Origin: an uncultured Acidobacteriota bacterium
GTDB taxonomy: Bacteria > Acidobacteriota > UBA6911
NCBI GenBank assembly: GCA_963827655.1
Contig: CAWHCF010000002.1
Coordinates: 96,001-160,000, forward strand
Length of the DNA: 64,000 bases
Reading direction: 5' to 3'
Shown: piece by piece, positions 1,105 to 38,649 of the stretch
Position numbering within the stretch: position 1 is the stretch's first letter
How the letters are laid out: each line of letters begins with the position of its first letter
The notes under the pieces: model-generated
The model's input: the letters and a program-made list of their open reading frames with translations, nothing else
Told to the model about the DNA's origin: nothing
Database searches by the model: none
Program-made: the position numbers and the translations under genes

Positions 1105-1205
1105 AATGACAAATGATAAATGACCAACGATAGATGACAAATTCCGGCGAGCAAGCAGCCCCGATTTATTGGTCATTTATCATTGGTCATTTGTCATTGA
1201 TCATT
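1105..1205. repeat. Inverted pair of heptamer tandem arrays (AATGACA-like / TGTCATT-like)
   Basis: aatgacaaatgataaatgacc at ~1105-1143 faces ggtcatttatcattggtcatttgtcatt at ~1164-1205. Confidence 0.8.
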
Positions 1206-1382
1206 CCCACAATGGTATTTCTTCGTGACCTTGTGGTAGATTCCACTTGCTCGAGGAAGATGCGTCGCGTTTCCTGGTGTCTTCGAGCCTTGGTGGTAGC
1301 AAAAACCAACCCCCTAAGACTCGAAGAAACGCCAGGCGCTAATCACCAAAAATCTGTTGCTAATCTAAATGTGAGGTAAGCC

Positions 1383-3017: not shown

Positions 3018-3196
3018 CGGCGCTCGGACGCCCGCCGCTTGGAGTTTGGCGAAGCTTGCTTCGCCCGTGCCGGGCAAACAAGCGTGCGCTGTCTCTGCGC
3101 TCTCTCGGTCACAACCTGCTACGCTTCCTGGCTGTCGCCTCCGCGACTGCTCAGAATATTGTTGTGAGCCATCGTCCTCGCCAGTGAGGCTCGGCC

Positions 3197-4819
3197 TTAG
3201 CGCCGCAGGAATGCCCTCGCATTCTGCAGTTCCAGCCTGGCTGAATCGGCGTCGGCGCAAAGCTCGATCAGTTCCGTGTAACGCTGTTTCGCCTTCTTTG
3301 GGTTGCCTGACAGCTCGGCCGCGCGCGCAGCGCCGAATGTCGCATTGAACCGCTTCGGCAAATTGCGGAGTGTAGTTTCAAATTCCGGCAATGCTCGCGC
3401 CGGCTGGTCGAGTTCCAGGAAGAGATCTCCCAGCAGCTCTCGCGCCGGAAGGACCGCTCCGGGCGTGACTGGATGTTTTTCTGTCGTGTCTTCCAGCTCA
3501 GCAGCCGAGCGCATCAGCCGGACTGCCTCCTCGTTGTTTCCTTCCGCGTGCGCCACCCAGGCAGAAGCTGCCAGCCGCTGCATTTCCACTTGCGCGCTCC
3601 AGTCGTAGTTCCCGTCGGCGTGCTCCAGCGCTTTCCGGACGGACTGGAGTTTTTCGGTTTCGATGCGGGCGGCCGCGGGATCACCGCTCCGGGCCGATCC
3701 GATCGCGCGCGCAAAATAGGTAATCGCCTCGGCGTAGCGAAAACGGTCCCAGGGAAACGTGGCGGGACGCACCTGGAGCGCCGCTGCTTCCGACCAGCGG
3801 CGTCTTTCCAGCGCGTAGCGCGCGGGAATCGCGGCAAACGCGTAAGCCGCCTGGAACACCTCCGCGTCAACTTTGGAGATTGCCGCCGTTTCCTCAACCA
3901 CTCGTCTTGCCTTCGCATCCTGGGACCCCTGCAGGTAGGCGTACACGAGGTAGTCCATGGCGTGAAGCTGATCTTGCGAGGCGGCGCCCGGATGCGTGCG
4001 GGCCACGTGATTCTTCGCGGCTGCCGCTGAGGCCAGATTCGATTGGATGGAGTCCTGCCAGAGCCCGAGGCGAGTGAAAATGTGCGACGGCATGTGGAGG
4101 GCATGCGGACTGGCGGGCGCAATGCTCGCGTAGCTGCGAGCGGCAGCCAGGGCGAGAGCGGCAAGCGGCGGCGAGTCGTAGCTGTGAATCACGTAGTGGA
4201 CGATGCCTGGGTGGTTCGGCTGCTCCCGCAGGATGCGGGTCAGAATCGCGGCGGCCTGCTTCTGGTTGGCGTAAGTCTTGTCGGTTGCCGGCGCGGTGCC
4301 GATCAAAGCCAGCGCGAAGAAGATCGCGGCCTCTCGATCCTGTGGATAGCGCGCAGCCAGCCGCTCCATCGCCTCGCGCCAGGCGCGGGCACGCTCCTGG
4401 TGAGGGACTCGGTCCGAGTCCTTGTAGTAGACTTCGAGCGCCGCGATGTAGTCGCGCTCGCGCTGGGTTCTGGCGCCTATGGACTTCGCTTTCTCAATCG
4501 CGCCGGCACCGTTTCTCAGCTCGGCGGGGTTCGGTGGAGCCCAGATGGGGTGATAAAGACTCATGGCGATCCCCCAGTAACCCATGGCGCAGCTCGGGTC
4601 CACGCGGGTTACTTCGGAGAAGGTCTTTTCGGCTTCGTCATACCAGAAGGAATGCAGCATCGTGATCGCATCATTGAAGGTCTTCTGGGCTCCCGTCGAG
4701 CATGACACCGGGAAATGAACCGAGCCGAGCTTCCCGTGATGGTCATGTTGGCCGTCATCGCCGAGCATGTTGGAGCAGAGGAAAATCACCGCAACGGCCA
4801 CAACCAGAATCCTTGCCAT
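3197..4819 (-). CDS. Exported TPR-like helical repeat protein
   Basis: Signal peptide; LGSVHFPVSC, LHSFWY, HYVIHSYD and HALHMPSHIFTRLGLW motifs; all-helical Ala-rich repeats. Confidence 0.75.
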   Translation of the reverse strand: MARILVVAVAVIFLCSNMLGDDGQHDHHGKLGSVHFPVSCSTGAQKTFNDAITMLHSFWYDEAEKTFSEVTRVDPSCAMGYWGIAMSLYHPIWAPPNPAELRNGAGAIEKAKSIGARTQRERDYIAALEVYYKDSDRVPHQERARAWREAMERLAARYPQDREAAIFFALALIGTAPATDKTYANQKQAAAILTRILREQPNHPGIVHYVIHSYDSPPLAALALAAARSYASIAPASPHALHMPSHIFTRLGLWQDSIQSNLASAAAAKNHVARTHPGAASQDQLHAMDYLVYAYLQGSQDAKARRVVEETAAISKVDAEVFQAAYAFAAIPARYALERRRWSEAAALQVRPATFPWDRFRYAEAITYFARAIGSARSGDPAAARIETEKLQSVRKALEHADGNYDWSAQVEMQRLAASAWVAHAEGNNEEAVRLMRSAAELEDTTEKHPVTPGAVLPARELLGDLFLELDQPARALPEFETTLRNLPKRFNATFGAARAAELSGNPKKAKQRYTELIELCADADSARLELQNARAFLRR

Positions 4820-4869
4820 CTAAATACCTCGAAAAATGATCCGGCAGTGAATAGCCCCGCCCGTCGAAA

Positions 4870-5095
4870 GCTGTGAAAAAATTCAGCGAACGGCTCTCGA
4901 TTGACCGGCAGCCCCTCTTGGCTTTTGTGGCGCGGGTCATTAGAGCCGTTGCAACTGTCGCCAGCTGATGTGCACGGGTTATCCATTCCGGCATCACGTT
5001 AATGACATCATAAGAACGTCTTAGGCTAGAAGCTCACGGCTCATCCTTACTGCGCGGGTCTGAAGACCCGCGCCACAGACGAATTTTTTCACAGC
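4870..5095. mobile_element. MITE-like element with perfect 15-bp terminal inverted repeats
   Basis: GCTGTGAAAAAATTC (4870-4884) and GAATTTTTTCACAGC (5081-5095); internal hairpin gcgcgggtctgaagacccgcgc; no transposase. Confidence 0.55.
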
Positions 5096-5194
5096 CTCTC
5101 AGGGCGGGGGACTGGCAGACCCGAGTCCGAGGTCCGAAGGACCGGCACTCTGACCGTGCCGCACCTTCGGCGCTCTTCTTAACGCACACCCAAT

Positions 5195-5245
5195 CCCGGC
5201 CTTACGGCCGGGCCTACTCTCTGTCGGCCTTTCAGGCCTCAACTG
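5195..5245. repeat. REP-like double hairpin
   Basis: cccggccttacggccggg plus ggcctttcaggcc. A reverse-complement partial copy lies at ~10292-10323 (gaggcctgaaaggccgacagagagtagg), with fragments at ~50044 and ~50260. Confidence 0.65.
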
Positions 5246-5333
5246 CTTCAGAATACGTTAGCGGAATTGCAAACAGCACGACTTAATTTCCCTTTGAATG
5301 CCAGGCCAGCGTGCGAATTCGCTCGCGCCAAGT

Positions 5334-6638
5334 TTATCGCTCCCCGAGCGGTCGAAGGTAATTCTTGAAAACCCATTGAGCAACCCGCGCCCCCTGCGAT
5401 CGGCCGTGCGTATCGGCAGTACGGAAGTGAATCCCGGTGAAGACCCGGGCATCGACGACCTCTTCCACGGCGGTCGAAAAGCGGCTGAACACACGCGTCG
5501 GCCGTAATGCCAGCGGATATGCAGTAGTAATCGAGAAGGTGACTCGATCCGTCCCAAAGAATTGGGTCAGTGCTTCGGCCGCCGCGCTCGAACTCGTGGA
5601 GTGGCCTGAAGTGTATTCCGGAAAATTCGGCGTGTTAATCAATGGCTCCCACGTCGGGTCGCCAGCAGTGTCGGGGTTCCCATCGCTGTCTCCCTCCTGA
5701 ATGGCGGTCACGGGCCGCCAGAAGACGTAAAAATACTTGGTCTCCCAGCAAGCAATCTGAGCGTCCGCCGAAGCGAGGTCAACCAGCGCAAACATGCGTG
5801 CGCTGTCTCCGATGTTATCGATGTACCTGCTGGCAATGTTTCGCAGGGCTCTCTGCCACAGAACTGGACCGCTGTCAGCCCAGAAGTACCCGATCTCCGT
5901 CTGCTCTGGCGTCCGCCCGCTGTTGAACCTGGCGCCCAGCTCTTTCACCTCGTTGTAGTCCTCGGTATACAAAGCGCTTGAGAGATCGGGCGGGCCCTCG
6001 GCTCGGAACTGGGAGTTGCGTCTCATTGTAAAAGGAGTAACGTTCGCCACCCAAGGCGTGAGACCCGGAGCTAACGAAGCCGGCGGGCCGGGAATGTACG
6101 AGGCGGTCGGCCTCCAGACGCCGGCAGCCGTTCCACCCATGAACGGTGGCTGGCCCGCAGGAAACCGGCCGTCATTCGACCGCAAGCTAATGATACCCGC
6201 GGCGGCCTGTTGTCCCACCGTGATGCCGGGATCTTGTGGCGAGATCCCATGATTAGCGAGATAGTAGCTAAACGTGGTCGTCAAGCGCGCACTTTGTGCC
6301 GGAAAGAGGTAGACCAGAACATCGTATGCCGCCTTGGCTGCCGCAGCCTCAGGTGAACCGGACGCTCTTGGGATCACCACATGATACGGCTCATAGCGAC
6401 GATCGAGTGAAATAACGGCATCATAGATAGCCACGTGAACAATGGCGAAGTCGAGAGACGCGACTACCGACGGATGTCCGCCAAACGTTACCGCTTGTTC
6501 GGCAATAGCATTCCAATCCGAAACAGTGTCGGCGTACGCGCCAGACCAGCCCGCCACTAAAAGCGTAGCCAGGAACAGGACTCCTGTTCTCAGTTTTACT
6601 GGTCCGACGCCCTTATAGTATCTGTTGCTCTTTTCCAT
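5334..6638 (-). CDS. Exported vanadium-dependent haloperoxidase / PAP2-superfamily phosphatase
   Basis: KYFYVFWRP, EYTSGHS and RVFTGIHF match the three PAP2/VHPO motifs. Signal peptide; start placed at the Met after a GGAGG RBS. Confidence 0.85.
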   Translation of the reverse strand: MEKSNRYYKGVGPVKLRTGVLFLATLLVAGWSGAYADTVSDWNAIAEQAVTFGGHPSVVASLDFAIVHVAIYDAVISLDRRYEPYHVVIPRASGSPEAAAAKAAYDVLVYLFPAQSARLTTTFSYYLANHGISPQDPGITVGQQAAAGIISLRSNDGRFPAGQPPFMGGTAAGVWRPTASYIPGPPASLAPGLTPWVANVTPFTMRRNSQFRAEGPPDLSSALYTEDYNEVKELGARFNSGRTPEQTEIGYFWADSGPVLWQRALRNIASRYIDNIGDSARMFALVDLASADAQIACWETKYFYVFWRPVTAIQEGDSDGNPDTAGDPTWEPLINTPNFPEYTSGHSTSSSAAAEALTQFFGTDRVTFSITTAYPLALRPTRVFSRFSTAVEEVVDARVFTGIHFRTADTHGRSQGARVAQWVFKNYLRPLGER

Positions 6639-6974
6639 GAATCCTCCCTTTTTCCTATCCGCGAGACCAACCGGACAGAAGCGGCTCACAGCCGTTCCCC
6701 TGTTGACAGGACCTCGATTGCTCCAAGGCCAGGGCGCCGATCTGAGCGGCCGCCTTTCTGTCCGGTCAGGACTGATCCTGCAACCACTGATTCGCCGACA
6801 TCGATTCGCGCCACTCAAAGGCGAATCTTTGTCGCACTCATCTCGTAAGGCGGGAATTTCGTCGGAATCGGTCCACTCAATGGCAATTTTTCTTCGCGCG
6901 AGGCCTTCTGGCGAAGCGAATCGGGTGTTAGAATTGGCCGCCTACGCGTCAATCTGATCAAGGGACCGGGTTAG

Positions 6975-7556
6975 ATGAGTGTGCCCTCGCCAGGGAAGGT
7001 GAGTCAGTTGCTCGTGGAGTGGAGCGCGGGGGATAAGGCGGCGCTCGACAAGCTCATGCCGCTGGTCTATGACGAATTGCACCGAATGGCCCATCGTTAC
7101 ATGCGAGGGGAACGTCCTGGCCATAGCCTTCAAACCTCGGCTGTAATCAACGAGGCATATCTCCGGCTCGTTGATTACACGAAAATGCGCTGGCAGAACC
7201 GAGCCCACTTCTTCGCGGTCGCCGCGCAACTGATGCGTCGAATCCTGGTCGATCACGCTCGAAGCCTGCACTATGCCAAGCGAGGGCAAGGGGCAGTCAA
7301 AGTGCCACTCGAGGAAGCGATCGTATCACAGGAGCCGGCAACGGACATGGTTGCGCTCGACGACGCGCTGATTAATCTGGCGACATTGGATCCGCGCAAG
7401 AGTCAGATTGTTGAACTGCGCTACTTCGGCGGACTCAGCATCGAGGAAACAGCTGAAGTCTTGGGGCTTTCGCCCACTACCGTTAAACGCGAGTGGCGCG
7501 GGGCAAAAGCCTGGCTGCACAGGGCCATCACCGGTGGTGAGAGTAATGAAGCTTGA
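6975..7556 (+). CDS. ECF sigma-70 factor, TIGR02999-like
   Basis: LMPLVYDELHRMA, LQTSAVINEAYLRL, WQNRAHFFAVAAQLMRRILVDHAR, VELRYFGGLSIEETA. Confidence 0.92.
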   Translation: MSVPSPGKVSQLLVEWSAGDKAALDKLMPLVYDELHRMAHRYMRGERPGHSLQTSAVINEAYLRLVDYTKMRWQNRAHFFAVAAQLMRRILVDHARSLHYAKRGQGAVKVPLEEAIVSQEPATDMVALDDALINLATLDPRKSQIVELRYFGGLSIEETAEVLGLSPTTVKREWRGAKAWLHRAITGGESNEA

Positions 7557-25202: not shown

Positions 25203-26618
25203 ATGCTTCGTAGACGGATCGCCTTGGCGGTTTTGTTCTCAGCGATCGCCGCTTTGGCTGCGACGGGCTGTAACCCGTCCGCCAAACAAACGGAACAGCG
25301 GCCAGGCGCCGCACCGACCGGGCGGCAATTCAGGCCGCCCTATTATGTGTTCAGCCCAGATGTGCCGCCCGATATCGTCACACAGGATGTCGGCGCCATC
25401 GGGTTTCAACCCTTTGTAGATAACCTGGCCTGGGACTCGTTTATCGCGCTCAATTGGCCCGTCCCGGACCCGATCACGCAACGCGGGGTCCCGGATCGCC
25501 AGAACGTCATCGGAGGTTTTCTCAGCACCGGAGAGGGTGGAAAGAAATCCCTGCCTATCGGCCCTACCGTCTGGGAGACTTACAAGGACACCGATGACAT
25601 CTTTCTCAATCCGCCGGTAAAGCCTTCGTCCTTCGACACTCCTGAAAGCATCCCGCCCCCCTGCATAGTTCCCGCAAGCGGAAACTCGGCCGCTGCCCGT
25701 CGTACCCTGACTCAAATCGCGAAGGTCTCAGACGTGCTCAAGGAATTCCAGGAGGCGTTCACCGGGTTCCCATTGATAGACCAGAACGGTGAGTACGTCT
25801 GGTACGAAGTGAAGGTCAACCAGGCGTACTACGACTATGTCGTGAACAACGGTTTCTTCAACAGCGCGAACCAGACGGGCAAGGTGATCTCGTTTCCCTC
25901 GTCATCCAACACTACCCGCGATGTGCCCGCGATCAAGATCAAGGCAGCCTGGAAAATAATGGGCGGGTCCGGGAGCCGGCAGCCCGATGACCCTACCAGG
26001 TTCTACACAACATGGGCTTTCGTCTATAACCCTGATACGGGCCAGTGCGCCGCAAAACAGGTGGGTCTTGTGGGACTGCATATCGTGATGAAGACGGCGC
26101 TGCTGCCGCAGTGGAACTGGGCGACCTTTGAGCACGTGGACAACGCGCCTGACCAGCAGGGAGGGCCCGTGCCTGGAAAGAAGTACAACTTCTTCAGCTC
26201 AACCTGCGCAGGTTGCCCGTTCAATAAACCACCAACCAAGCCAAACATGCCGACACAGGTAGTGCGCTTGATTCAGGTCAGCAGCATAGCTCCGAACAGT
26301 GTCTATCAGGGTGCGCTCACATCGCTGCGCCCGGACAACGTCTGGCAGTACTACATGCTTGTTGACTCGCAGTGGTCCGGCACACGCACTCCCGTTGGCG
26401 TTCCGACCCAGCCCAAGTACCTGGCCAACGCGTCGCTGGAGACCTATCTGCAGGGCGCGGTAGACGACCCCAAGGCCCCGCACGGCTGCATCAACTGCCA
26501 CGGAACGTTTGCCGCCACAAAAGATTTGGATTTTCAGTTGTTCAAGGCGTATCCGCGATCGACGAGCCTGATCAAGGACATCCTCAAGGCGCATGGGCAA
26601 GCGCCTGCACCTAGGTAG
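25203..26618 (+). CDS. Lipoprotein with C-terminal CxxCH heme-c motif
   Basis: Lipobox ATGC; AWDSFIALNWP, VWETYK, GLVGLHI, WATFEHVDN; CINCH. Confidence 0.75.
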   Translation: MLRRRIALAVLFSAIAALAATGCNPSAKQTEQRPGAAPTGRQFRPPYYVFSPDVPPDIVTQDVGAIGFQPFVDNLAWDSFIALNWPVPDPITQRGVPDRQNVIGGFLSTGEGGKKSLPIGPTVWETYKDTDDIFLNPPVKPSSFDTPESIPPPCIVPASGNSAAARRTLTQIAKVSDVLKEFQEAFTGFPLIDQNGEYVWYEVKVNQAYYDYVVNNGFFNSANQTGKVISFPSSSNTTRDVPAIKIKAAWKIMGGSGSRQPDDPTRFYTTWAFVYNPDTGQCAAKQVGLVGLHIVMKTALLPQWNWATFEHVDNAPDQQGGPVPGKKYNFFSSTCAGCPFNKPPTKPNMPTQVVRLIQVSSIAPNSVYQGALTSLRPDNVWQYYMLVDSQWSGTRTPVGVPTQPKYLANASLETYLQGAVDDPKAPHGCINCHGTFAATKDLDFQLFKAYPRSTSLIKDILKAHGQAPAPR

Positions 26619-26857
26619 TGCTCTTAGAGTTTCTTTGTGTCTTCGTGTCTTTGTGGTTAGAGCTGTCTAACAAATACCACGAAGACTCAAAGACACGAAG
26701 AAACACCAAGAATCTTGCCAAAAAAGCAAGAAGTTACGGCGTAGTAATACAAGGACACGAAGAAGAAAAATCATCCTGGCCAGTTAATATCGAAGCGCCT
26801 ATAATGATCACTTCTTCCTGGCAATCGCGGCGTCTTATTCCCTTTCAGGAGCAAATT

Positions 26858-29800
26858 ATGCATATTCGTGTCTCCATCACACTCGGTCAATTCCTTCTCC
26901 TCGCCGCCATTGCCGCTGCGCAGGATCCCCGAGGCACCATCCTCGGGCGGGTCACCGACTCCACGGGCGCCGTCATGCCCGGAGTCGAGGTGCGGGCGAC
27001 AAGCACTGCTACCAATGTGAAGGCGTCGGCCGTGACTAATGATGGAGGAAGCTACAACATCCCCTTTCTTCTTCCCGGCACCTACAGTATCCGCGCCGAA
27101 CTGTCCGGCTTCAAAAAATTCGCGCAGGATAACGTTCAGGTGCGTGTGAGCGAGACCGTGGAGTTGAACTTTCGGATGGAAATCGGGGAGCTTACCGAAA
27201 CAGTCACTGCTACGGCCGAAAGCCCCGTGCTCGACACGGCCGGATCGTCTCTCGGTCAGGTAGTGGACCAGCGGCGAGTGCTCGAGCTGCCTCTTTTCGC
27301 CGGCAACCCGATGGAGCTAACGCTGCTGACTCCGGGAGTCGCCAACGCCACCGACATGCGGCTTCGGAAGGCGGCCTTCAATAACGCTCCCTCGCAGATC
27401 GCCACCGACGGAAACGGCCAATACAACAATGAGTTTCAAATCGACGGTGTTTCGAATACCTTCGCCGCGGGCAATGGCACCGCCCGGGTCGCCTTCAGTC
27501 CACCCGCGACCGCGATCAGCGAATTCAAGATGCAGACCACTCCGTACGACGCGAGCGTCGGCCACACGATCGGGGCGGTCACCAACGTCAGCACCGCCGG
27601 GGGCACGAACACGCTGCACGGCGAGGCGCACTTCTGGGAGCGCAACAGCGCCTTCGATGCGCCGAATTTCTTCAACAACAAGAACAACACCGAGCCGCCG
27701 GTCTATCAGGACCACCGCTATGGCGCCTCGGCGGGCGGGCCGGTCTGGATCCCCGGACTTTATGAGGGGAAGAACCGGACCTTCTGGTACTACGCCTGGG
27801 AGGCCAACAAATGGGGCGTCCCGAGCGCGTCGACCAGCACCGTGCCGACGGCCGCTCAGCGCGCCGGCGATTTCTCGGAGTTGTTGAGATTGGGCAACCA
27901 GTACCAGATCTACGATCCTCTGACCACGCGGGCCGAAGCCGGAGGCCGCTTCAGCCGGCAGCCCTTTCCCGGCAACATCATCCCTCAGAACCGGCTCGAT
28001 CCGGTGGGACAGAAGCTGGTCAATTTCTTCCCGCTGCCGAACCAGCCGGGAACCGTCGACGGCCGCAACAATTTCTTTTTCACCTACAAGGCGCTCGAGG
28101 ACTATTACGTTCACCTGGTCCGGGTCGACCACGCGTTCAGCGACAAGCATCGACTGTTCGCGCGCGTGCACTACGACTTCTGGGAGGAGGACAAGAACGA
28201 CATCTTCGGTAATCGGGTCAACAGCTTGATCCTGAACCGCATCAACCGCGGCTTTGCCTTCGACGACGTCTACGTCCTGAACTCGAAGATGGTCCTCAAC
28301 ATACGCTACGGCCTGACGAGCCAGGACTTTCCCGAGCGCCGGGCGAGCCAGGGGTTCGACCTGTCCTCGCTGGGCTTTTCGCCCTCGCTGGTTTCACTCG
28401 TCGACAAGAGCGTCGCCACGATTCCTCGCACGGCGGCCGGCGGTTACACGCGCTTCGCTAACTGGGAGAGCGGCGACGGCACCAATACCAGCCTGACCCA
28501 CAGCCTCACCGGCAACGTCACGCGTCTGGAGGGGAGCCATAACTTGAAGTTCGGAGTGGATGCCCGTGTCTACCGCGCCTTCGGCAACCGCTTCCAGCTC
28601 TCGACGTCGCCCGATCTCGAGTACAACAGTAACTACACGCGCGGACCGCTCGACAACTCGACCACGGCACCGATCGGCCAGGAGCTGGCCGCGATGCTGC
28701 TCGGCGTCCCGGCCGGCTCGATGGCTCGTTCGGCGAGCTTCGCCATGCAGGACACGTTCTACGGCCTCTACCTGCACGACGACTGGAAGGTCAACTCGCG
28801 TCTGACACTCAACCTCGGTCTGCGCTGGGAGCTCGAGACGCCGATTACCGAACGCTTCGACCGGCTCGTGGGCGGCTTCGCCTACGGACAACCGAACCCG
28901 ATCGAGGCGGAGGCCCAGGCCAACTACGCCCGCAATCCGATCCCGGAGATCGATCCGTCCGCATTCCGGGTTCTCGGCGGACTCATGTTCCTGAACCAGG
29001 GAGGCCTCGAGCGCAGCCCGTTTTATGGCGAGAAGAACAACTTCCAGCCCAGGATCGGTTTCGCCTATCAGCTTACCCGGGGAACGGTGCTGCGCGGCGG
29101 CTACGGCATCTTCCACGACACCATCGGGACCAACAGCAACACCGCGCTCCAATCCGGCTTCTCGCAGACCACTCCGATCCAGGCATCGCTCGACAACGGT
29201 CTGACCTATGTCGCGAACAACGTGAATCCGTTCCCGACCGGGCTGCTCAGCCCGCTCGGCCCGGCGGGAGGGCTGCGCACCAACCTGGGCCAGGCGCTGA
29301 CATTCTATGACACCAACCTGCTCCAACCCTACGCGCAACGCTGGTCGCTCGGGATCCAGCAGATGCTGCCGTCTCAGTTCCTGACCGAGGCGACTTACGT
29401 CGGCAACCGCGGAACCCGCCTCGGCGCCAGCCGCAACATCAACGCCACGCCCGCGCAGTACCTGAGCACCAGGCCGACCCGCGACCAGGCGACCATCGAC
29501 TATCTCTCGGCGACATTTGTTAGTCCGTTTGCCGGGATCGACCCGATTTACCCCGCCCGCACGTCGCGCGAGAGCCTGCTTCGCCCCTATCCGCACTTCG
29601 GCGCCGTCAACGTCGAGGAGCCGACCGGCTACTCCTGGTACCACTCGCTGCAGGCGCGCCTCGAGCGCCGCTTCGCGCAGGGGTTCACTTTCCAGCTCGG
29701 CTACACCTGGTCGAAGCTGATGGAAGCGGTCGAGTTCCTGAACGCGAGCGATCCAATGCCGTCGGAGGTGATTGGCTCTTTCGATCGCACGCACCGTCTG

Positions 29801-30319
29801 GCGATGAGCGGCATCTGGGAAATTCCGGTTGGCCGCGGGCGCCGCTACGGCGGGCAGTTGCCGACGCTCGTCAACGGCATCGTCGGCGGCTGGCAGCTCA
29901 ACGGCGTGGTGACGCGCCAGTCGGGGGCTCCGCTCGGCTTCGGCAATGCCATCTTCACCGGCGATTTGAACGACATCGTCTTGCCGAAAAGCGAGCGCGA
30001 CGTCGACCGCTGGTTCAACGTCGATGCCGGATTCAACAAGAACACGGCCCAGCAGCTCGGCAGCAACATCCGCACCATGCCGTTGCGCTTCAGCGGCATC
30101 CGCAGCGACGATCAGTCGCGCTGGGATTTCTCGATCATCAAGAACTTCCCGTTCGGCGAGCAAATCAAAATGCAGCTTCGCGCCGAGGTGTTCAACGCCT
30201 GGAACCAGACGAACTTCGGCAATCCGAATACGACCCCGACCAACTCGGCCTTCGGCCGCATCACTGCCACGTCCGGGGACGCGCGCACCTGGCAGTTCGC
30301 GCTGAAGCTGGTTTTTTGA
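26858..30319 (+). CDS. TonB-dependent receptor, Oar-like with carboxypeptidase-regulatory-like N-domain
   Basis: GTILGRVTDSTGAV, LTLNLGLRWE, NFQPRIGFAY, terminal WQFALKLVF. Confidence 0.92.
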   Translation: MHIRVSITLGQFLLLAAIAAAQDPRGTILGRVTDSTGAVMPGVEVRATSTATNVKASAVTNDGGSYNIPFLLPGTYSIRAELSGFKKFAQDNVQVRVSETVELNFRMEIGELTETVTATAESPVLDTAGSSLGQVVDQRRVLELPLFAGNPMELTLLTPGVANATDMRLRKAAFNNAPSQIATDGNGQYNNEFQIDGVSNTFAAGNGTARVAFSPPATAISEFKMQTTPYDASVGHTIGAVTNVSTAGGTNTLHGEAHFWERNSAFDAPNFFNNKNNTEPPVYQDHRYGASAGGPVWIPGLYEGKNRTFWYYAWEANKWGVPSASTSTVPTAAQRAGDFSELLRLGNQYQIYDPLTTRAEAGGRFSRQPFPGNIIPQNRLDPVGQKLVNFFPLPNQPGTVDGRNNFFFTYKALEDYYVHLVRVDHAFSDKHRLFARVHYDFWEEDKNDIFGNRVNSLILNRINRGFAFDDVYVLNSKMVLNIRYGLTSQDFPERRASQGFDLSSLGFSPSLVSLVDKSVATIPRTAAGGYTRFANWESGDGTNTSLTHSLTGNVTRLEGSHNLKFGVDARVYRAFGNRFQLSTSPDLEYNSNYTRGPLDNSTTAPIGQELAAMLLGVPAGSMARSASFAMQDTFYGLYLHDDWKVNSRLTLNLGLRWELETPITERFDRLVGGFAYGQPNPIEAEAQANYARNPIPEIDPSAFRVLGGLMFLNQGGLERSPFYGEKNNFQPRIGFAYQLTRGTVLRGGYGIFHDTIGTNSNTALQSGFSQTTPIQASLDNGLTYVANNVNPFPTGLLSPLGPAGGLRTNLGQALTFYDTNLLQPYAQRWSLGIQQMLPSQFLTEATYVGNRGTRLGASRNINATPAQYLSTRPTRDQATIDYLSATFVSPFAGIDPIYPARTSRESLLRPYPHFGAVNVEEPTGYSWYHSLQARLERRFAQGFTFQLGYTWSKLMEAVEFLNASDPMPSEVIGSFDRTHRLAMSGIWEIPVGRGRRYGGQLPTLVNGIVGGWQLNGVVTRQSGAPLGFGNAIFTGDLNDIVLPKSERDVDRWFNVDAGFNKNTAQQLGSNIRTMPLRFSGIRSDDQSRWDFSIIKNFPFGEQIKMQLRAEVFNAWNQTNFGNPNTTPTNSAFGRITATSGDARTWQFALKLVF

Positions 30320-30413: not shown

Positions 30414-33381
30414 TCACGAACTAGCCCGGTTCAGGGCTCGTCCGAGCCGGCTCTTGAGTTCGCCCGCGCTCCCAGGTCGCCTTGCGCGGTCTCGCGCAAG
30501 GGCATCGAGGAAAAAGGCCGCCACGGACTCCGGGCACTCCGGAACTATCTCGCGGAGGTCCGGCACCGCGGCCTTGGATATGCAGTCGAGCGTTTCCTGG
30601 AGCGTGGAGCGGCGCATCGGGTTGCTCCCCGCGATGGATTCGTACAGCACCATCGTCAGGCTCCAGAGATCGAAAGAAGCGTCGGGCGGGTCATTGGCGA
30701 CAGCTTCCGGCGACAGGTACATCGGCGTGCCGACCAGCCCATGCGTGACCGTAATGGGCTTGAGGTCCGAATGGGGCGGGAGTGTCGTATCAGGCGCGTA
30801 GGCCCCTGGATCCACGTCTCCGCTTTCCTCGAACGAGACGCGCGAATCGACGATCCGGGCGAGCCCGAAATCCAGCAGCTTTGGGGTATTCTCCAGAGTG
30901 AAGCCTATGTTGCTGGGCTTGACGTCTCGATGCAGGATCCCGGAAGCATGAATGCGCACGAGCACGTTCGAGAGCACGATCCCCAGGTCCAGTCCGTCCT
31001 TCCAGCCCATAGGCGCTTGCGCGAGCCGGGCCGCGAGCGTTCCCCCCTCGAGAAACTCGAAGATCAGCATCGGCGTGCCGCGCCAGGTTTCGAGTCCGAA
31101 GATAAGCGCCAGATTGGGGTGGACGATTGAAGCCATCGCACGAGCCTCGCGGCGCAGCCGAACCGCGTGCTCTGGAGAGACCCGCGGCAGGGTCTTGATC
31201 GCGACAGTCCGGCGAAGCGACAGATCAAACGCGCGATAGACGACCCCCATTCCTCCTTTGCCGACGCGTTTCGCGAACCTGAACTTCCCGAGCAGGACGT
31301 ATGGAACAACTGCGATCTCGCTTTCTCCTCCGCAGAACTTGCAGGGCTTCACCGTGGCGCGAAAGACGGCGCCGCATGTTCTGCATTCGCCTGCCGTGCT
31401 GTCGTCGGCAGCCCTAGGGACTCCCGGACTCGTTTCGAGCTCGTCCGCTCCCTGGCGCGACACGGCGAAGGCCGGGCTGATCCTGATCAGGAGATTCTCG
31501 ACAGCGAAGGACGCAGAACCCGCAAGAGCATTCAACAGCAACCGGTCCTCCCGTGAAAACGGCAACTCGCTGAGCTTTCCGCCGAGGGCCATCACTCCGA
31601 CGAGCCATCGGTTCGACGTAATCAGCGGGACAAGCAGCTCGAAGGCGCCGTCGGCGAGCCACTGCTTGTCCTCCTCGGGGAGGCGACGCAGAGCAGATCG
31701 CGGGTTGCCAAGGTCGATGTCGAGCGCTTCGGTGCCTCCACTCAGTAATGCGACCAGCGGCGATGAGGCCCTAAGCGGACGTATCGTGCCTCTGAGGGGA
31801 AACGAATTCGCCGTAGGTCTCGCTCGAGCACAATACGACAACGGATTCCGGGTGCAGCGCCCGTTGAATGCCCGCGCCTAGAACCTCCGCCAGCTCGTCA
31901 ATGTTCTCGGCCTGGCGGCATTTGTCCACCAGATCGGCCAGAATCTGCTGCGAATCGTACTGCTCCCGAAAAAACCTTCGGTCTAACGCGTTCAGGACCT
32001 TGCCTCGGAGCTTCAATGCGGCATAACCCAAAGCTATCGCAGTTGCGAGGATTGTCAATCTGGGACCTGTCAATAGCCGTGCCAGCGTTTCCTGACGGTG
32101 CGCAAAAAGGTAAATAGCGATCGCCGTAAACGGCAGGGCAACCACACACAGGACGGTGTAACGGGCAAGTGCATACTGTAACGCACGGCGGATTATCAGC
32201 CTGACATCCAGTACCCGATCCACCAGAACGGAGTAGGCCGTGGTCACCGGTACCAGTAGAACGAGCAACTGCGGGAGCCGGTCGAGCCAGCCATAGGCTT
32301 GGCCCGGAGGCCCAGGAAACAGGACGCGGATGAGGATGAGGATATAGACCGGAACGCTGGGAAGCAGCAGGCCCAGCAAAAACACAGATACGCGCTGCCG
32401 CTCCCCTGGCGTACTGTGGCGAGCCTTCCACAGCGCAACCGGAAGCGCCGGGATCATCAGACCGTACAGAATCGCCCAGTAGCGAACCATGACGCTCGAT
32501 TCCCAGAGAACGGCAAGACCACTCCGGCCGTCGGGCCGGGAAAACAGGTGGTTGACCGAAATCACAAAATCGCTCGCGAACATGAGGAATCCGGCTGCCA
32601 TACACAAGCGCACGGCAAAGATAATGGTCCGATCCAGCCGTGCCGACGAAAGGGCTCGGGGAAACTCCCGAACGAAAAGCCACACGCATGCGGGAAGGAA
32701 TGCGTCGGTATGCAAACTTGCCAGTATCCCGAGGAGAAGTTCGAGAGCAGCCGGGGAGCGTGGCGGCCATGAGGGTAGGATCTTGTATGAGTAGGCCGCG
32801 GCTATGAGCAGGAAGACGATCCCGAGGATCCGGGCTCGCGAATCGCTTCGAGACCCAAAGACCAGAAGCAATCCAGAGATGGCAAAGGCAATCAGGTTAG
32901 CGGATCGGAAAAAGGGAAACGTAGCCGAGTGCTCCCCTGAGATCCAGGAGAGCGCGATGCCGGCCGACGCCAGGCACACTTGAAGGCCGGCAAGTACAGC
33001 GACAGTTCGTGTCCAACCCCGGAGGAGCAACCCTACATCCCGCTCAACGCTCTCAACGCACTGAATAGGACAAACGTAAATGCCGATCCTCGTTTTCAAG
33101 GCCACGCGGAGATCCTCGTTTTCGATCAGGGCAGAGCCACGCCCGATCGCTGTAGCTGCGGCAACAAGGCCCGCCGCGCGCGCAAATTCGAGCATCTGCT
33201 TCTCGATCGACGGCCAGCTTCCGCTCCTGACAACTCCCTCGATCTGGCTTTTGTAGGCCTGGCGAAGGCTTCCTGTGGCTTCCCGCGATATCGAAACGAG
33301 AGTGCCCGCTCCACTTCCAAAGGCAAACCAAATCAGATCGCCTAACCCTTCGACGTCGTAGGTCGCAACACTGGGGGACAT
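30414..33381 (-). CDS. Multi-TM Ser/Thr kinase (histone-fold-like N-domain, ~8 TM, GAF-like, Cys4 ribbon, kinase); frameshift near 31797
   Basis: AGGAG RBS before ATG 33381; LDRRFFREQYD linker; CRTC...CKFC; GKGGMGVVY, HRDVKPSN, DFGLAR, GTPMYLSPE. The two ORFs join at a C homopolymer. Confidence 0.82.
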
Positions 33382-33673
33382 AGTATCTCCTCTATAGATG
33401 TGAAGTCGTCGAACGGCGCTCCTTAGCGCGGCGCGAGCAACGCGTTGATTCCTTTCCTCCGCGGAGAGCACACAAGGAGTACCGGTGTGCCCCAATCGCT
33501 TCCCGCTTGCTGCCATTATGGCTAATCGCTACTGAATTTCGGCGTAGATACGCCGCCGAGTCACCAGGTCAGCGTGATCGGGACACCACCGAAGTTGAGC
33601 CAAATTTCGCGTATAAGTGTTTTTATCGCGAGCTCGTTTGAGAAGCAAGGGAAATTGAGGCGGGGTGTCTAAT

Positions 33674-33800: not shown

Positions 33801-36800
33801 TCAATTCAACACTACATTCGCCCTGCCGCCCGGCTGCCCATAGCCCGTCAGGATGATGGTGTTGCTATCCAACGGCAATTGAGACGAGATGTTGATACTC
33901 TTGACTTCACCATTACTCAGACCGACGGTTTGAAACAAACGTCCGTTTATGATGATTTCGATGTACAACACCCCGGGGCTCCCGTTTTGAATTCCTATGC
34001 TGCTCATGGTCGGGGGAATGTTGTCGAGGGTCAGGCTGACCGGCCTGCCTGATTCGGGGAGTTCCAGTAGCAGGCCCGCGGACGTTGCTGTCACGGTTAC
34101 GGTGAAGCTGCAGTTCGCCATGTTGCCGGCCGCGTCCGTGACCCTGAAGGTGTTGGTAGTGACCCCCACCGGGAAGGATGCACCGCTGGCCAGCCCGGCC
34201 GTCTGCATCGTGGTTGCTCCGGGACAGGCATCCGTGCCCACAGGCGCCGTGTAGGTGACCACGGCCGAGCCCGAGCCGGGCGAGCTTTCAGTCACAACTA
34301 TGTTGGCCGGGCAGCTGATCACCGGATTCTCCGTATCGATGACCGTCACCGTGAAGCTGCAACTCGTCCCGGCTCCGTTGGCGCAGGTTACCGTCGTTGT
34401 GCCGACGGGGAAGAACGAGCCGGAAGACGGCGTGCAACTCACCGGCCCGCAACCGCCGGTTACGGTCGGGGCAGGGAAGCTGACGATCGCTCCGCACTGG
34501 CCCGGGTCGTTCGGCACGGTGATGTTGCTTGGGCAACTGATCATGCAGGCCGCCGGAAGGATTGTCGTGACATCTGATGCCGTGTTGTTCGTGGTATTGA
34601 CATCCCCACCCCCCGAGACGGTCGCTGTGTTGGTCACCGATGGGGGTGCGTTGGGTGCAACATCCACCGTGAGTGTCACAGGGGGATAGCTCGCTGCGGG
34701 CGCCAGCGCGTCGCTTCGAGTGCAATTGACCATTGCGCCAGTGATGCCGCAGTTCCAGCCCGCTCCGCTCGCCGCCGTGGGAGTCAGCCCCGTCGGGACA
34801 GTGTCGGACAGGGTGACGGCGCCGCTGGTCGGCGAGCCGCCGCTGTTGGTCACGGTCACGGTAAATTCTGCTCCGGTCTGCCCCTGTGTGAAGTTGCCGG
34901 TGTGGCTCTTCATGAGGCTCAAATCCGGCGCCGACACCACCGTTACGGTGAAGCTGCAGTTCGCCATGTTGCCGGCCGCATCCGTGACCCTGAAGGTATT
35001 GGTAGTGACCCCCACCGGGAAGGCTGAACCGCTGGCCAGCCCGGCCGTCTGCGTCGTGGTTGCTCCAGGACAGGCGTCGGTGCCCACGGGCGCCGTGTAG
35101 GTGACCACCGCCGAACCCGAGCCGGCCGGGTTCTCGGTCGCAGTGATGTTAGCCGGACAGGTGATGGCCGGATTCTGCGTATCGTTGACCGTGACGGTAA
35201 AACTGCACGAGGCGTCCGGCGCCACGCCATTCGAGGCGGTGCAGGTTACCGTTGACGTCCCGACCGGGAATGCGTGCGGTGAGGTGATAGGGGTCGCGCC
35301 TATCCTGCACGTTACGGTCGGCGCCGGGCAGCCGGCCGTCGCCGTCGGCGGAGTAAAAGAGACCAATGCCGTGCACGTCCCCGGATCAGTGTTAACAGTC
35401 TGATTGGCCGGACAGGCCGAGATCGACGGCGGCAACTGCACCGTCATTGACGAGGTCTGCGTCCCGTTGTCCAGCGTCGCCGATACATTGCCCGTGTTCG
35501 GAGTCGGACAGGTCGAGCTGGCGGTGAACAAGGTCGCCGGCCATCAGGCTGCTCAGCGCCGCCGATCCGGGCGAAACGCTCCCCAGCCTGCCGCCGGCTG
35601 AACGTGATGGTCAGCCCGTTCAGCACTACCGGATTTATCGCCGCCCCATTTGTGTTCTGGCTCACGTTCGCCGTGAACGTCTGGGTCCCGCCCGGCGCGA
35701 GCGTCGCGCTGGCCGGCAGCAAGCGCAGGTCTATCCGGGGATCGGCGTCGAATGTCCCGCTGCCCGTCTGGCAACCCGCGGCTGCTGGGGAAGCCGTCGC
35801 ACCCCCACCAGTTGTTCTCCACGCTGGCCGTGCCGCCCGTCTGCCCGATGCCCGAGCCTGACGGCGCCGTATTGCTCACGATCCGGTTCAGGTTGGCCGT
35901 CAGCAAGCCGCTGCTGATAAACAGCGCCCCGCCCGCCACGGTCGCGCTGTTGCCGCTGATCGTGCAGTTGGTGATGGTCGTTAACTGATTGACAAAGGCG
36001 TTCGTCGTCGCCACTCCCCCGCCACTGTCCGACGCGTTGCCGCTGATCGTGCAGTTGTTGATCGTCAGCGGCGAGTTGGCCCCGTCTTCAATCCCCCCGC
36101 CTCTGGCATTCGCGCCCCGCCGTCGCGGTGTTATTGCTGATGGTCACACCTGACAGCGTGGTACTGCCCACCGGGTTCGCCGTTGAAGAGACCGCCGCCG
36201 TCGGCAGACGCGCCGGTTCCCTGCGCCGTGTTGCCTGTCAGGCTGCCTCCCGTCATGTTCACGGTCTGGCCGCCCACTCCGGCGATCAGTATCCCGCCGC
36301 CGTCCGACCCCGAAATGTTGCTCGAGATCGTGCATGTGTTGAGCGTGACGGTCCCGCCAAAACTGTGGCGTATGTTGATCCCGCCCCCGTTGGACCCGAT
36401 GTTGGCCGAGGTCTGGTTGCCTGTGATCGTGCTGTTGCTTATCGTCACATTATGCCGGTCAGCGAACAGATTGATCCCGCCTCCGGTCGCGACGCGCCGC
36501 TGCGGCGTTCAACGTGTCATTGTTCGAGATCGTGCTGCCGGTGATCTGAACCGTGCCCCGAAAAATATTGGTGCCTCCCATCAGATCGCCGCTGTCGATG
36601 TTGATCGCCCCGCCGTAGCTGTTCTGGTTGGCATTGCTGTCAAACGTGCAGTTGGTCACGGTCGTGGTCGGCCCGGGCATCGCTCCCGTGCCGGTCAGGA
36701 AGATATCCAGCGCTCCCCCGGTCTCGGTGAAGGTGCCGATCGTGGGGTTGTTGTTCCTGGTGAACCGAACCGTCAAACCCGAAAGGCTCACGCTCAAGGT

Positions 36801-38649
36801 CGAGAACGTCCCATCCTGGTTGATCCCGATTGCCTTGTCTCCCATGTTGCCCGTGAAGGCGGCATTGCTCGATCCCTGGATGATCGTGTTCGCGGCCCCA
36901 TTGCCCATGATGGTTATGTCCGAGTTGATGTCCAGGTCTCCGCTCGCGGCCGTGTTGTCATCGCCCACCTGCGTCAACTGGATCGGCACGCCGTTCAATG
37001 CGGCCGCGAACGTGATCGTGTCCGCGCCGGCATGAGCATTGGCTTCCTGAACCGCCGCGCGCAGGGAACAATTACCCCCCGAGTCGGCGCACGTGCCGTT
37101 GCCGGCGGCCGCATCATCCGTGTCAGCCGCGGTGTTGACGTTAAAGGCGGCGTGTGACTCGACTACCACGATCACGGGTTCCGGGTGGCTCTGTCGTAGC
37201 ACCACCAGACCAGGCCGCCCGTGCACGTTCAGCCGCATCGGCAGCGCCGCAACCGGCTGGCTATCGGCATCGAACGTGATCGCTTCCCTTCCCCCCGGCG
37301 ATGCTTCTTGCCCTGGCTGCGCGTCCTCCCTGAATGCCACCTGAAGTTGCCGCGCCCCGGGATTCACAACCAGCAGATCATGCGATTGCCGCACCCGATG
37401 CCAGCGTGCTCATCAGCAGCGGCTGCGCGCCGTCGCCTGCGTGCGTGAGGGTCATCGAGGTCCTCTCCGCCACCTCCCAGCTCAGTGCCCCGCTGGGTCT
37501 CGCCCCCCTCAGGTCTGACATCGGCCGGCTCCCTCGTCTCACTTCGGCTACAAGCTGCCGGCGCGCCCGAACCTCTTCCACAGTAAAGGGCCGGGTATCC
37601 AGCGTCCCGCGCGCCACGATCTGGACCGTGCCGTCCTCCGCCGCCACCGCCAGTTCCAGCCGCGCATCCCGATCCCAGATGAAATCGCTCACCGCCGCCG
37701 CTTTCACCCCAAACGGCAGTGCGATCGCCTCCAACTGCCCCGCTCGCTCATCCGGGACACTTCCGTACCCGGAGGCTTCATCATCCTCTCCGTGCAGTAT
37801 GTAGAGCCGGTTGCCCGCGATGATCGCCAGGTCCGTTGCACCATCCTCATCCAATCGCCCCAGGGTCACAAAGGTCGCCGCGGCCGGCAGCGGGTAGGTC
37901 GACGCCGCCTCCGCCGCGACACCCTGGTTCGCTTCATAAACCAGCAGCGCAGGCCCATCCGAACCTACGATCCCCACCACCAAATCCGCCCAGCTATCCG
38001 GCTGAGTCTTCTGCCCGGCCGCCATCGTCGTCAGCAGACCCGGCAACGGAACGGCCCTGGGCTCGTGGAATCCCTGGTTCCCGTCCCCACCCAGCAGATA
38101 GAGCGCCCCGCTTCCCCGCGCCCCTGTGATTATGTCCAGACGCCCATCCCGGTCGAAATCTCCCGTGGCCAGAAACTCCGGCGCTTCCGGCGTCCACAGC
38201 ACTGCCGCTTCGGGGAGAAACGGATCAGGATATGCTCCCTTGATGATGGACTGGATTGTCTCCGGTTTTGTCGGCCCATACGCTTCGGGATTGCCCAGGT
38301 GCAATGTCACCAGGCCTCCGCTCGCGCTGGCATACCCGCAAATCAGGTCCGGAAAACCGTCGAGATTGACGTCATCCGAGGCCAGCGACAGCGCCCGGAC
38401 CTGCCCTTGCTCCAGCGCCAGCAGGTTTCCGCCGTTCGTCAGCCCGGCCCCGGTATACTGCGCGCGCAAATCGCGCCCATTCCGAAAATGGATCCGGTAA
38501 TTGTTCTGCCCCCCGGCTCGCATCGTGATGGCGTCTTCGCGGGAGTCGGCCCTCGAGGCCAGGTACTGATTAGCGTCCACCAGGGCTCCAACGCTCGTGA
38601 GAACTAAAACCGAAAGGCCAAACGCAATCTTTGATGTGAGCCGCTTCAT
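33801..38649 (-). CDS. Giant exported protein B: FG-GAP-like, CSLREA, beta-helix, 2 HYR, DUF11, 2 HYR, small C-terminal beta domain; several frameshifts
   Basis: GGAGG RBS; signal peptide; DVNLDGFPDL and GDFDRDGRLD; CSLRAAVQEAN; FPVGTTTVTC HYR motifs; PDLSLMKSH. Reconstructed from six ORF fragments. Confidence 0.78.

Follow-up and report, generated by a model that had tools for sequence, protein, structure and literature searches.

An apparent histone-kinase fusion in an uncultured Acidobacteriota bacterium as a probable separate small gene next to a membrane kinase gene

The minus-strand region 33060-33381 of a 64,000-nucleotide (nt) stretch from an uncultured Acidobacteriota bacterium (assembly GCA_963827655.1, contig CAWHCF010000002.1, positions 96,001 to 160,000; hereafter the window) was initially annotated as a histone-fold-like domain at the N-terminus of a membrane Ser/Thr kinase. 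We assign a probability of roughly 0.8 to another reading. Namely, the region belongs to a separate small gene that is misread as a kinase domain through one net extra base; its product belongs to a histone-related family of closed topology, encoded beside such kinases in soil Acidobacteriota, and has the kinase as an inferred partner. Left uncorrected, the finding would have brought in a false 'histone-kinase' architecture, and the case illustrates that a single extra base can produce a convincing chimeric open reading frame (ORF). The interest of the case lies in unannotated, free-standing small proteins of the histone / AAA+ C-domain superfamily that are tightly coupled to one family of GAF-containing membrane Ser/Thr kinases, and in the evolutionary place of these proteins, rather than in the architecture.

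The small gene and its apparent fusion to the kinase gene

The minus-strand frame starting with ATG 33381 reads MSPSVATYDVEGLGDLIWFAFGSGAGTLVSISREATGSL...MLEFARAAGLVAAATAIGRGSALIENEDLRVALKTRIGIYVCPIQC and contains AFGSGAGTLVSISREATGSL, MLEFARAAGLVAAATAIGRG, SALIENEDLRVALK, and CPIQC (33072-33058). The residues quoted in the initial annotation are present as written and belong to a real family, with matches down to an E-value of 2.3e-38. Past CPIQC, the frame remains open through a multi-transmembrane (multi-TM) region and ends at 31771. An alternative, longer ORF starts at 33516; this is unlikely to be the real start because the three closest homologues all begin with MSPSV.

Three homologues, P0027 (95% identical to the window), P0037 (71-73%), and P0003 (64-65%), are each 115 amino acids (aa) long and end with VCPLQCQELLSGM, CPLSCEPKLSRM, and CPLECDERLARI, respectively, followed by a stop codon. 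Their shared end consists of CP(L)xC, seven residues, and the stop. In the window, the frame shifted by one base after CPIQC reads ...ALRALSGM-TAG, with the tail and stop at 33047-33033. The LSGM-TAG of this +1 frame is identical to the end of P0027 (QELLSGM-stop). The codon of Cys108 occupies 33060-33058; the seven tail residues of P0027 need 21 nt, and the window has 22. One base too many (net), located after the CPIQC codons and ahead of the stop, would push the tail of the small gene out of frame, and the shifted ORF would read on into the kinase gene, mimicking an N-terminal domain. Region 33033-33381 would then be a gene in its own right, coding for a cytoplasmic protein of ~114-115 aa. 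The fallback offered in the initial annotation, namely a small gene of its own that has lost its stop codon, is borne out by the stand-alone 115-aa homologues and by the LSGM-TAG kept one frame off.

The region was also compared with four sequencing runs, all of them represented by Logan contigs of relatives. Over the 1901 nt compared, only three indel sites were found amid many substitutions, with partial cover (depth in 25 of 30 bins for X2). Across 32915-33381, the X2 contig, from a ~95%-identical relative, differs by +1 behind 33048 and by -2 at 33056, which gives a net difference of -1. An X1 contig has its loose end at 33043; translated by hand, it reads CPLQCQELF and then continues in frame into GM-TAG. 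The small domain is continuous with the TM region only through one net extra base at ~33048-33057 that is absent from the relatives.

As assembled, the kinase gene is already split within the GAF domain by a second frame break, of one base; the C-terminal GAF half, the Zn ribbon, and the kinase domain are read in a different frame. A C4 run is located at 31796-31799, and one X2 contig lacks one base at 31795. The initial description of the histone-like domain as being in frame with a multi-TM/GAF/Zn-ribbon/kinase protein holds for the multi-TM region, to 31771, but not for the C-terminal half of GAF, the Zn ribbon, and the kinase domain. The complete gene would encode a membrane Ser/Thr kinase of ~870 aa composed of a multi-TM region, GAF, Zn ribbon, and a Hanks-type kinase domain. 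In a Pfam scan, Pkinase (PF00069) scored 116.1 bits against a cut-off of 31.7, and the motifs VAIK, HRDVKPSN, and DFG are readable in the translation; GAF_3 and GAF_2 gave partial, sub-threshold matches. The true start of the kinase is likely TTG 33030 (MLLRGW...), judging from the orthologue in genome G020, which begins with MPTAQW... and has its Trp equally far from the start.

A real and functional fusion, that is, a new architecture in which loss of the stop through a +1 mutation joined the histone-related module to the N-terminus of the membrane kinase, is highly improbable. The ORF is indeed open from 33381 through the TM region, side-by-side partner genes are the usual raw material of fusions (the pair in G020 even shares a frame), and the difference at 33048-33057 is complex and not a simple homopolymer error. 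The fusion would, however, be unique: the new architecture proposed initially was seen at none of 12 genome loci and none of 38 metagenome loci, and the searches revealed no fused form beyond the window's own ORF. As its linker it would have the old tail, read out of frame. Moreover, the second break cuts off the C-terminal GAF half and the kinase domain, so that no kinase is attached as assembled. The breaks reflect either errors of the assembly or mutations that recently inactivated the genes; in both cases there is no functional 'histone-kinase' protein.

The reading as a separate small gene thus comprises two sub-cases, assembly error and real breaks in an operon decaying to a pseudogene. 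The latter is somewhat unlikely. Two frame-disrupting differences, both absent from relatives and the first accompanied by substitutions, occur within 1.3 kb; the adjacent long gene is intact, and the ORFs at 35444-37394 also switch frames. On the other hand, the break at 31795 lies at or beside the C4 run, a typical error site, and the rest of the protein sequence shows good conservation and is free of stops and of other damage. The genome (53 contigs, 8.2 Mb, 90% complete) would fit a long-read assembly with residual indels.

Family, fold, and conserved residues of the small protein

A HMMER scan of residues 1-122 against 1.84 billion cluster representatives of all lengths (E <= 0.001) yielded 22 matches, the best of which was P0003 (115 aa, E 2.3e-38). 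Fourteen of these are proteins of 99-146 aa aligned over their full length, and five are tandem doublets of 228-238 aa. The other three (P0004, P0014, and P0024) were rejected as long repeat proteins matching in the Gly-rich piece only; P0024 was judged from five partial stretches. None of the 22 matches was a kinase fusion. A profile search among proteins of 54-256 aa gave 41 members of 89-146 aa, and the named ones are all 'hypothetical'. The corresponding search for longer forms returned only the window's own ORF, evidence that the tool rates as weak. The family includes at least 58 aligned proteins, and this 58-sequence alignment was used for conservation counts.

The small protein of the window matched no Pfam family, Pfam cut-offs were reached by none of 50 family members, and no NCBIfam model matched any of four small proteins. 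Literature searches produced no description of the small-protein family or of a kinase/small-protein gene pair; on unswapped histone-like proteins, they gave only Alva et al. (2007) besides unrelated work. The small protein represents an undescribed and unannotated family for which no Pfam or NCBIfam model exists. Doublets (P0005, P0006, P0007, P0010, and P0012; loci L028-L036, L038, L039, and L054) form a subfamily with two complete domain copies in ~230 aa and a Cys motif in each copy.

AlphaFold2 run with a 50-row alignment gave a compact model (mean predicted local distance difference test, pLDDT, 88.3; predicted template modelling score, pTM, 0.81). A single-sequence prediction of residues 1-122 (pLDDT 45.8) was discarded. 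The model contains helices 10-25, 33-53, 56-80, and 88-94, strands 30-31 and 85-86, and a hairpin at 98-103 before Cys104. It thus displays two helix-strand-helix motifs with a short predicted bridge between the two strands. The distance between positions 43 and 56 ranges from 9 to 28 residues among the 58 sequences; L027 carries a 28-residue insertion at the hinge. Other indels occur only in the tail; segments 20-26, 56-68, and 68-86 have a constant length in 58/58. The region at 54-55 is best modelled as a hinge on which both helix-strand-helix motifs fold back on each other, because a buried continuous helix would not bear insertions of up to 28 residues.

The model was compared with 48,161 PDB representatives (VIA-align), and the best 50 rows were considered. 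The first rank was taken by the doublet histone of Methanopyrus kandleri (1f1e_A; Z 7.2, root-mean-square deviation (rmsd) 3.1 Å, 87 residues, 21% identity). Residues 11-98 of the model align to residues 4-147 of 1f1e_A, with motif one on the first histone fold and motif two on the second, that is, on half of the pseudodimer. Most others among these 50 rows are C-domains of AAA+ proteins, including GtrR, MCM, FtsH, RuvBL, CbbX, Rpt subunits, p97, and MuB. The matches to AAA+ lids, to 2v6z, and to fused histone pairs (8uqe_B, 7n8n_D, and 1q9c) have Z values of 4.3-5.9, with several unrelated rows among them. A profile search of PDB sequences also placed 1f1e_A on top, in the same register as the structure match (residues 21-46 to 14-39 and 66-93 to 118-145), and phmmer with the single sequence gave chance-level matches only. 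Sub-threshold Pfam matches of histone type were those to PF00808 (CBFD_NFYB_HMF; 1/50 members, E 0.076) and Bromo_TP (1/50, E 0.12). The nearest language-model clusters of P0015 in the ESM-Atlas are histone families (PF00808, 0.79), which serves as a lead only. The window's own genome, searched with PF00808, yielded nothing.

The initial annotation proposed a divergent three-helix histone fold with a lengthened central region. The histone relation was retained, with 1f1e_A on top by both profile and structure, but not the three helices with a lengthened central helix: the AlphaFold2 model has four helices, with a break at residues 54-55 in the only internal segment of the family that takes indels. 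The central helix of a histone comprises ~28-30 residues, far fewer than the 48 that an unbroken helix would have here. A classical histone fold forming handshake dimers, possibly with DNA-binding capacity, is very unlikely, even though the best profile and structure matches are to an archaeal histone and the nearest language-model clusters are PF00808. This alternative is also favoured by the L2/helix 3 region, which reads G(R)xxIxxxD as in archaeal histones (R in 21/58), by the five tandem doublets that parallel doublet histones, and by the fact that only a monomer was modelled, which leaves room for swapping. It is opposed by two central helices (33-53 and 56-80) in a compact monomer, which speaks only indirectly against a handshake dimer, by the helix break at the very place where the family takes its insertions, and by the match to 1f1e, which needs both folds of the doublet and corresponds to half a dimer. 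Also, the median isoelectric point (pI) is 6.0, only 6/58 members exceed 9, and the Pfam histone model is not reached.

The small protein is thus modelled as a closed four-helix form of the AAA+ C-domain type, equal to one half of a histone dimer, and not as a three-helix handshake histone. The topology of the family is closed, and its sequence is at least as near to histones as to AAA+ lids.

The motifs pointed out initially are conserved in the 58-sequence alignment: Ser or Thr at position 32 in 33 sequences, A35 in 44, I86 in 47, and D90 in 46. Of the two refuting conditions named initially, the one on the fold applies, judged by the model, and the one on the motifs does not. The most conserved element is the Gly-rich motif AFG(Q)G(A)G(T), with G22 in 56/58, G24 in 58/58, and G26 in 57/58. 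Conservation extends to Y43, W56 at the hinge, E65, R68 (56/58), G71, A74/A75/A78, I86, D90, and A94. Cys104 occurs in 57/58 members and is followed by Pro in 36/58. A second Cys follows as CxxC in 20 members and as CxxxC in four (the clade of the window) and is absent in 33. An Arg after the Gly of L2 is present in 21/58 members; the window has Ser. The pI is below 7 in 41/58. The earlier suggestion that the protein lacks DNA-contacting residues and has some other role is plausible, given the median pI of 6.0.

The small protein would serve the kinase as a regulator, adaptor, or substrate. Its L1/L2 face, with the invariant GxGxG loop, would bind a protein or a phosphate-bearing group. Alva et al. 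(2007; PMC1847821) note that DNA phosphate is bound by the L1/L2 strand face in histones, and ClpS by that of Clp N-domains. The Gly-rich loop would act as a phosphate- or anion-binding element, and the conserved Cys (CPxC in a third of the members) may add a metal or redox switch. A more specific proposal, which we regard as rather unlikely, is that the family represents a free-living, monomeric, unswapped relative of histones, closer to them in sequence than to AAA+ lids, and would exemplify the intermediate postulated by Alva et al. (2007) between the AAA+ C-domain and the domain-swapped histone. Acidobacteriota would have recruited it as a phosphate- or protein-binding subunit of membrane Ser/Thr kinases with a Cys-based metal or redox switch. 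If the unswapped-intermediate reading is true, shortening of the hinge should yield a histone-like handshake dimer. The family makes a natural test of whether the histone fold originated by domain swapping.

The gene pair and its genomic context

The small gene was identified in 6 of 401 sampled genomes of the phylum, the window's own included (50-row profile). It is also present in G020, G002, and G017, all of the window's own family. Among the weak genome matches (L003-L006 and L008; E 0.016-0.17), L005 and L006 are unrelated proteins. A scan of species representatives with a 12-row sub-alignment added five loci, all from named metagenome-assembled genomes (MAGs) of Acidobacteriota (Vicinamibacteria/-ales and Thermoanaerobaculaceae).

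In 12 of the 13 genome loci outside the window, the small gene is adjoined by a kinase homologue with the same orientation. At each of these 12, the small gene and the kinase gene are separate ORFs, which answers the question, raised initially, of whether homologues are fused or stand alone beside such kinases. The kinase homologues are 830-951 aa long and share 31-37% identity with the window kinase across the TM part and 41-53% from GAF to the kinase domain. The small gene lies 5' of the kinase gene in 10 loci and 3' in two (L017 and L019). Where coordinates were compared (hand-read), the gap to the kinase start is 2 nt in the window and 72 nt in L015; in L018, L020-L022, and L025, it is ~19-33 nt. 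In G020, both genes are in the same frame, parted only by TAG TAA and eight codons. One locus in a Thermoanaerobaculaceae MAG, L022:842-7076(+), carries two tandem pairs (842-1171 with 1195-3840, and 3986-4315 with 4341-7076).

Metagenomes searched with the doublet alignment gave 64 loci, including 48 with a single-domain gene. In all 38 single-domain loci with at least 427 nt of downstream flank, a kinase homologue follows directly downstream, and in none of them are the two genes in one open frame. Ten further single-domain loci were left out for a flank of <=415 nt. The remaining loci were 12 doublets, L057 and L059 with two ORFs each, and the ambiguous L040 and L089. The single-domain small gene is coupled in position and strand to the GAF membrane kinase family.

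Apart from the kinase, no conserved neighbour was found across the genome loci, save a redoxin in three loci. This AhpC/TSA redoxin (PF00578, E 1e-20 to 2e-19) is encoded immediately 5' of the small gene in 3/14 genome loci and gives a weak hint of a thiol/redox link of the small protein's Cys. For the doublet subfamily, no conserved neighbour of any other kind was found.

Judging from gene order, the small protein would be a cytoplasmic partner of the kinase and co-translated with it. It is a candidate accessory subunit for bacterial Hanks-type kinase signalling; we know of few dedicated small partners of such kinases. A complex prediction for the pair in G020, with a kinase of 858 aa (11-row alignment) and a small protein of 113 aa (55 rows), gave a score of 0.00 without controls and counts for neither side. 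The genome of the window contains a distant second paralogue of the kinase TM domain (G000:C36:62545-63579, minus strand; 28% identity, E 1.8e-16), and no second copy of the small gene was found in it at E <= 10. Not every such kinase has a small partner, since this genome has one small gene only.

Several observations weigh against the reading as a separate, closed-fold partner of the kinase. No sequencing run with the window's own sequence was found (best word share 0.24), and the extra bases are seen in the assembly only. At 33048-33057, the break does not stem from a homopolymer slip, as relatives differ by +1, -2, and substitutions; because the site is a cluster of changes, it may be a real mutation. 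The neighbouring 3.7-kb ORF 26618-30319 is intact, which indicates that the assembly is not uniformly indel-ridden. With regard to the fold, the structure Z is modest, values of ~7 being called common for unmatched models by the tool, and the top profile match to 1f1e_A has a modest E-value of 0.03. Foldseek against PDB gave nothing at E <= 0.001, with RuvBL lids and a single Cse4/H4 chain on top (E 0.4-0.6). Among 50 members, the lid-type Pfam matches were all sub-threshold: AAA_lid_2 in two (best E 0.0063); LonB_AAA-LID in two; and Cdc6_lid in one. The fold comes from one AlphaFold2 monomer model, and a domain-swapped form is possible as well; the intramolecular pairing of strands 30-31 and 85-86 is a deduction that draws on the DSSP string and on alignments to lids. 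With regard to the gene pair, L016 has the small gene without a kinase. In L017 (G167) and L019 (G415), both of one family (f58), the order is reversed, the kinase gene being followed directly by the small gene with no change of strand. No kinase was found near doublet-subfamily loci, four of which have at least 3.2 kb on both sides.

The features of the small gene and the kinase gene are listed in Table 1.

Table 1. Features of the small gene, the kinase gene, and associated redoxin genes (window coordinates unless a locus is given).
Feature	Coordinates	Strand	Remarks
GGAG, resembling a ribosome-binding site	33387..33390	-	5 nt 5' of ATG 33381
Small gene body, residues 1-108	33058..33381	-	own frame; P0027 95% identical, 115 aa, own stop
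First helix-strand-helix motif: helix 10-25, strand 30-31, helix 33-53	33223..33354	-	AlphaFold2 model
AFGSGAGT, Gly-rich end of helix 1 and loop L1	33301..33324	-	most conserved motif of the family
Predicted hinge, residues 44-55, just N-terminal of conserved Trp56	33217..33252	-	sole internal length-variable segment; helix break of the model at 54-55
Second helix-strand-helix motif: helix 56-80, strand 85-86, helix 88-94; histone-like G..xI...D	33100..33216	-	AlphaFold2 model
CPIQC in short C-terminal hairpin	33058..33072	-	Cys104 is the family-wide Cys (57/58 sequences)
22-nt stretch from the Cys108 codon to TAG (21 nt in relatives)	33036..33057	-	frame break behind the apparent fusion
TAG, probable original stop of the small gene, now one frame off	33033..33035	-	preceded by LSGM codons 33047-33036; matches the end of P0027
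TTG, likely true kinase start (MLLRGW...)	33028..33030	-	2 nt past TAG; suggested by G020
Kinase part 1: multi-TM region without Pfam match, N-terminal half of GAF	31796..33030	-	resembles N-terminal halves of the 830-951-aa kinases
Second frame break, at or beside C4 run (TTTCCCCT on minus strand), inside GAF	31795..31799	-	overlapping ORFs in different frames
Kinase part 2: C-terminal half of GAF, Zn ribbon, kinase domain	30414..31795	-	ORF 30414-31841
Four-Cys Zn ribbon	~31320-31388	-	inside kinase part 2
Hanks-type kinase domain	~30468-31277	-	inside kinase part 2
Redoxin copies	L015:4099-4860(+), L018:5481-6140(-), L022:67-669(+)		PF00578; L018 copy with signal-peptide-like N-terminus

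Upstream of the small gene, the minus-strand ORFs 36459-37394, 36131-36448, 35553-36014, and 33801-35531 follow in succession in frames 2, 1, 2, and 2. The last two are parted by a single in-frame stop, and Pfam matches were obtained only in the last one (four HYR and DUF11). Judging from this arrangement, minus-strand region 35444-37394 could encode a single large surface protein that additional frame errors have broken up. Upstream of this fragmented region, an FG-GAP repeat protein of 423 aa is encoded (37378-38649, minus strand). The uninterrupted 1233-aa ORF 26618-30319 on the plus strand converges on the kinase gene, and its product looks like a TonB-dependent receptor.

Comparison with known systems

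Three known systems share the helix-strand-helix construction or its closed form: the AAA+ C-domain (lid); archaeal histones; and the N-terminal domain of DNA polymerase epsilon subunit B (Dpoe2NT). Alva et al. (2007; PMC1847821) propose that hinge shortening and a 3D domain swap gave rise to the histone.

AAA+ lids align with the model of the small protein over 70-76 residues (rmsd 3.0-3.8, with modest Z values of 4.3-5.9), and weak Pfam matches relate the family to AAA_lid_2, LonB_AAA-LID, and Cdc6_lid. In contrast to lids, however, the small protein is free-standing: its members are 89-146 aa long, or doublets of 228-238 aa, and contain no ATPase part. Its inner helices, of 21 and 25 residues in the model, are much longer, and it possesses the invariant GxGxG loop, the C-terminal Cys hairpin, and the genetic coupling to a kinase. 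None of 50 members reaches the cut-off of a curated AAA lid hidden Markov model.

By both profile and structure, no other single match ranks above the archaeal doublet histone HMk of Methanopyrus kandleri (1f1e). The L1 motif G.G..(V/I)S.EA and the L2/helix-3 motif G(R)xxIxxxD..A are common to archaeal histones and the small protein, and the conserved Ala residues of the second motif fit the description given by Alva et al. (2007; PMC1847821). Unlike in histones, the central helix of the model is broken by a hinge, and one chain would be equivalent to half a histone dimer. The family is mostly acidic or neutral and does not show the basic character with L1/L2 DNA contacts, and none of 50 members reaches a histone cut-off in Pfam (CBFD_NFYB_HMF / Histone).

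Dpoe2NT (2v6z; Z 5.6, 75 residues) has a C-domain fold outside AAA+ proteins (PMC2528186) and is a precedent for such an occurrence. It differs from the small protein in being a eukaryotic domain of a larger subunit; the relation is one of fold only, and Dpoe2NT has neither the Cys hairpin nor a kinase link.

Minor prokaryotic histones that lack the usual DNA-binding residues, such as the DUF1931 and 'transmembrane' categories, are described in the main text of Schwab et al. (2024; PMC11390915), which suggests other roles for them. These categories count there as true histone folds, and that text, taken apart from its supplementary figures, mentions no kinase partner and no Acidobacteria, the word 'kinase' occurring there only in an unrelated context. 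The small protein is neither a member of the histone families by any curated test nor an AAA+ lid as lids are defined, since it has no ATPase; it represents a new free-standing variant of the helix-strand-helix superfamily.

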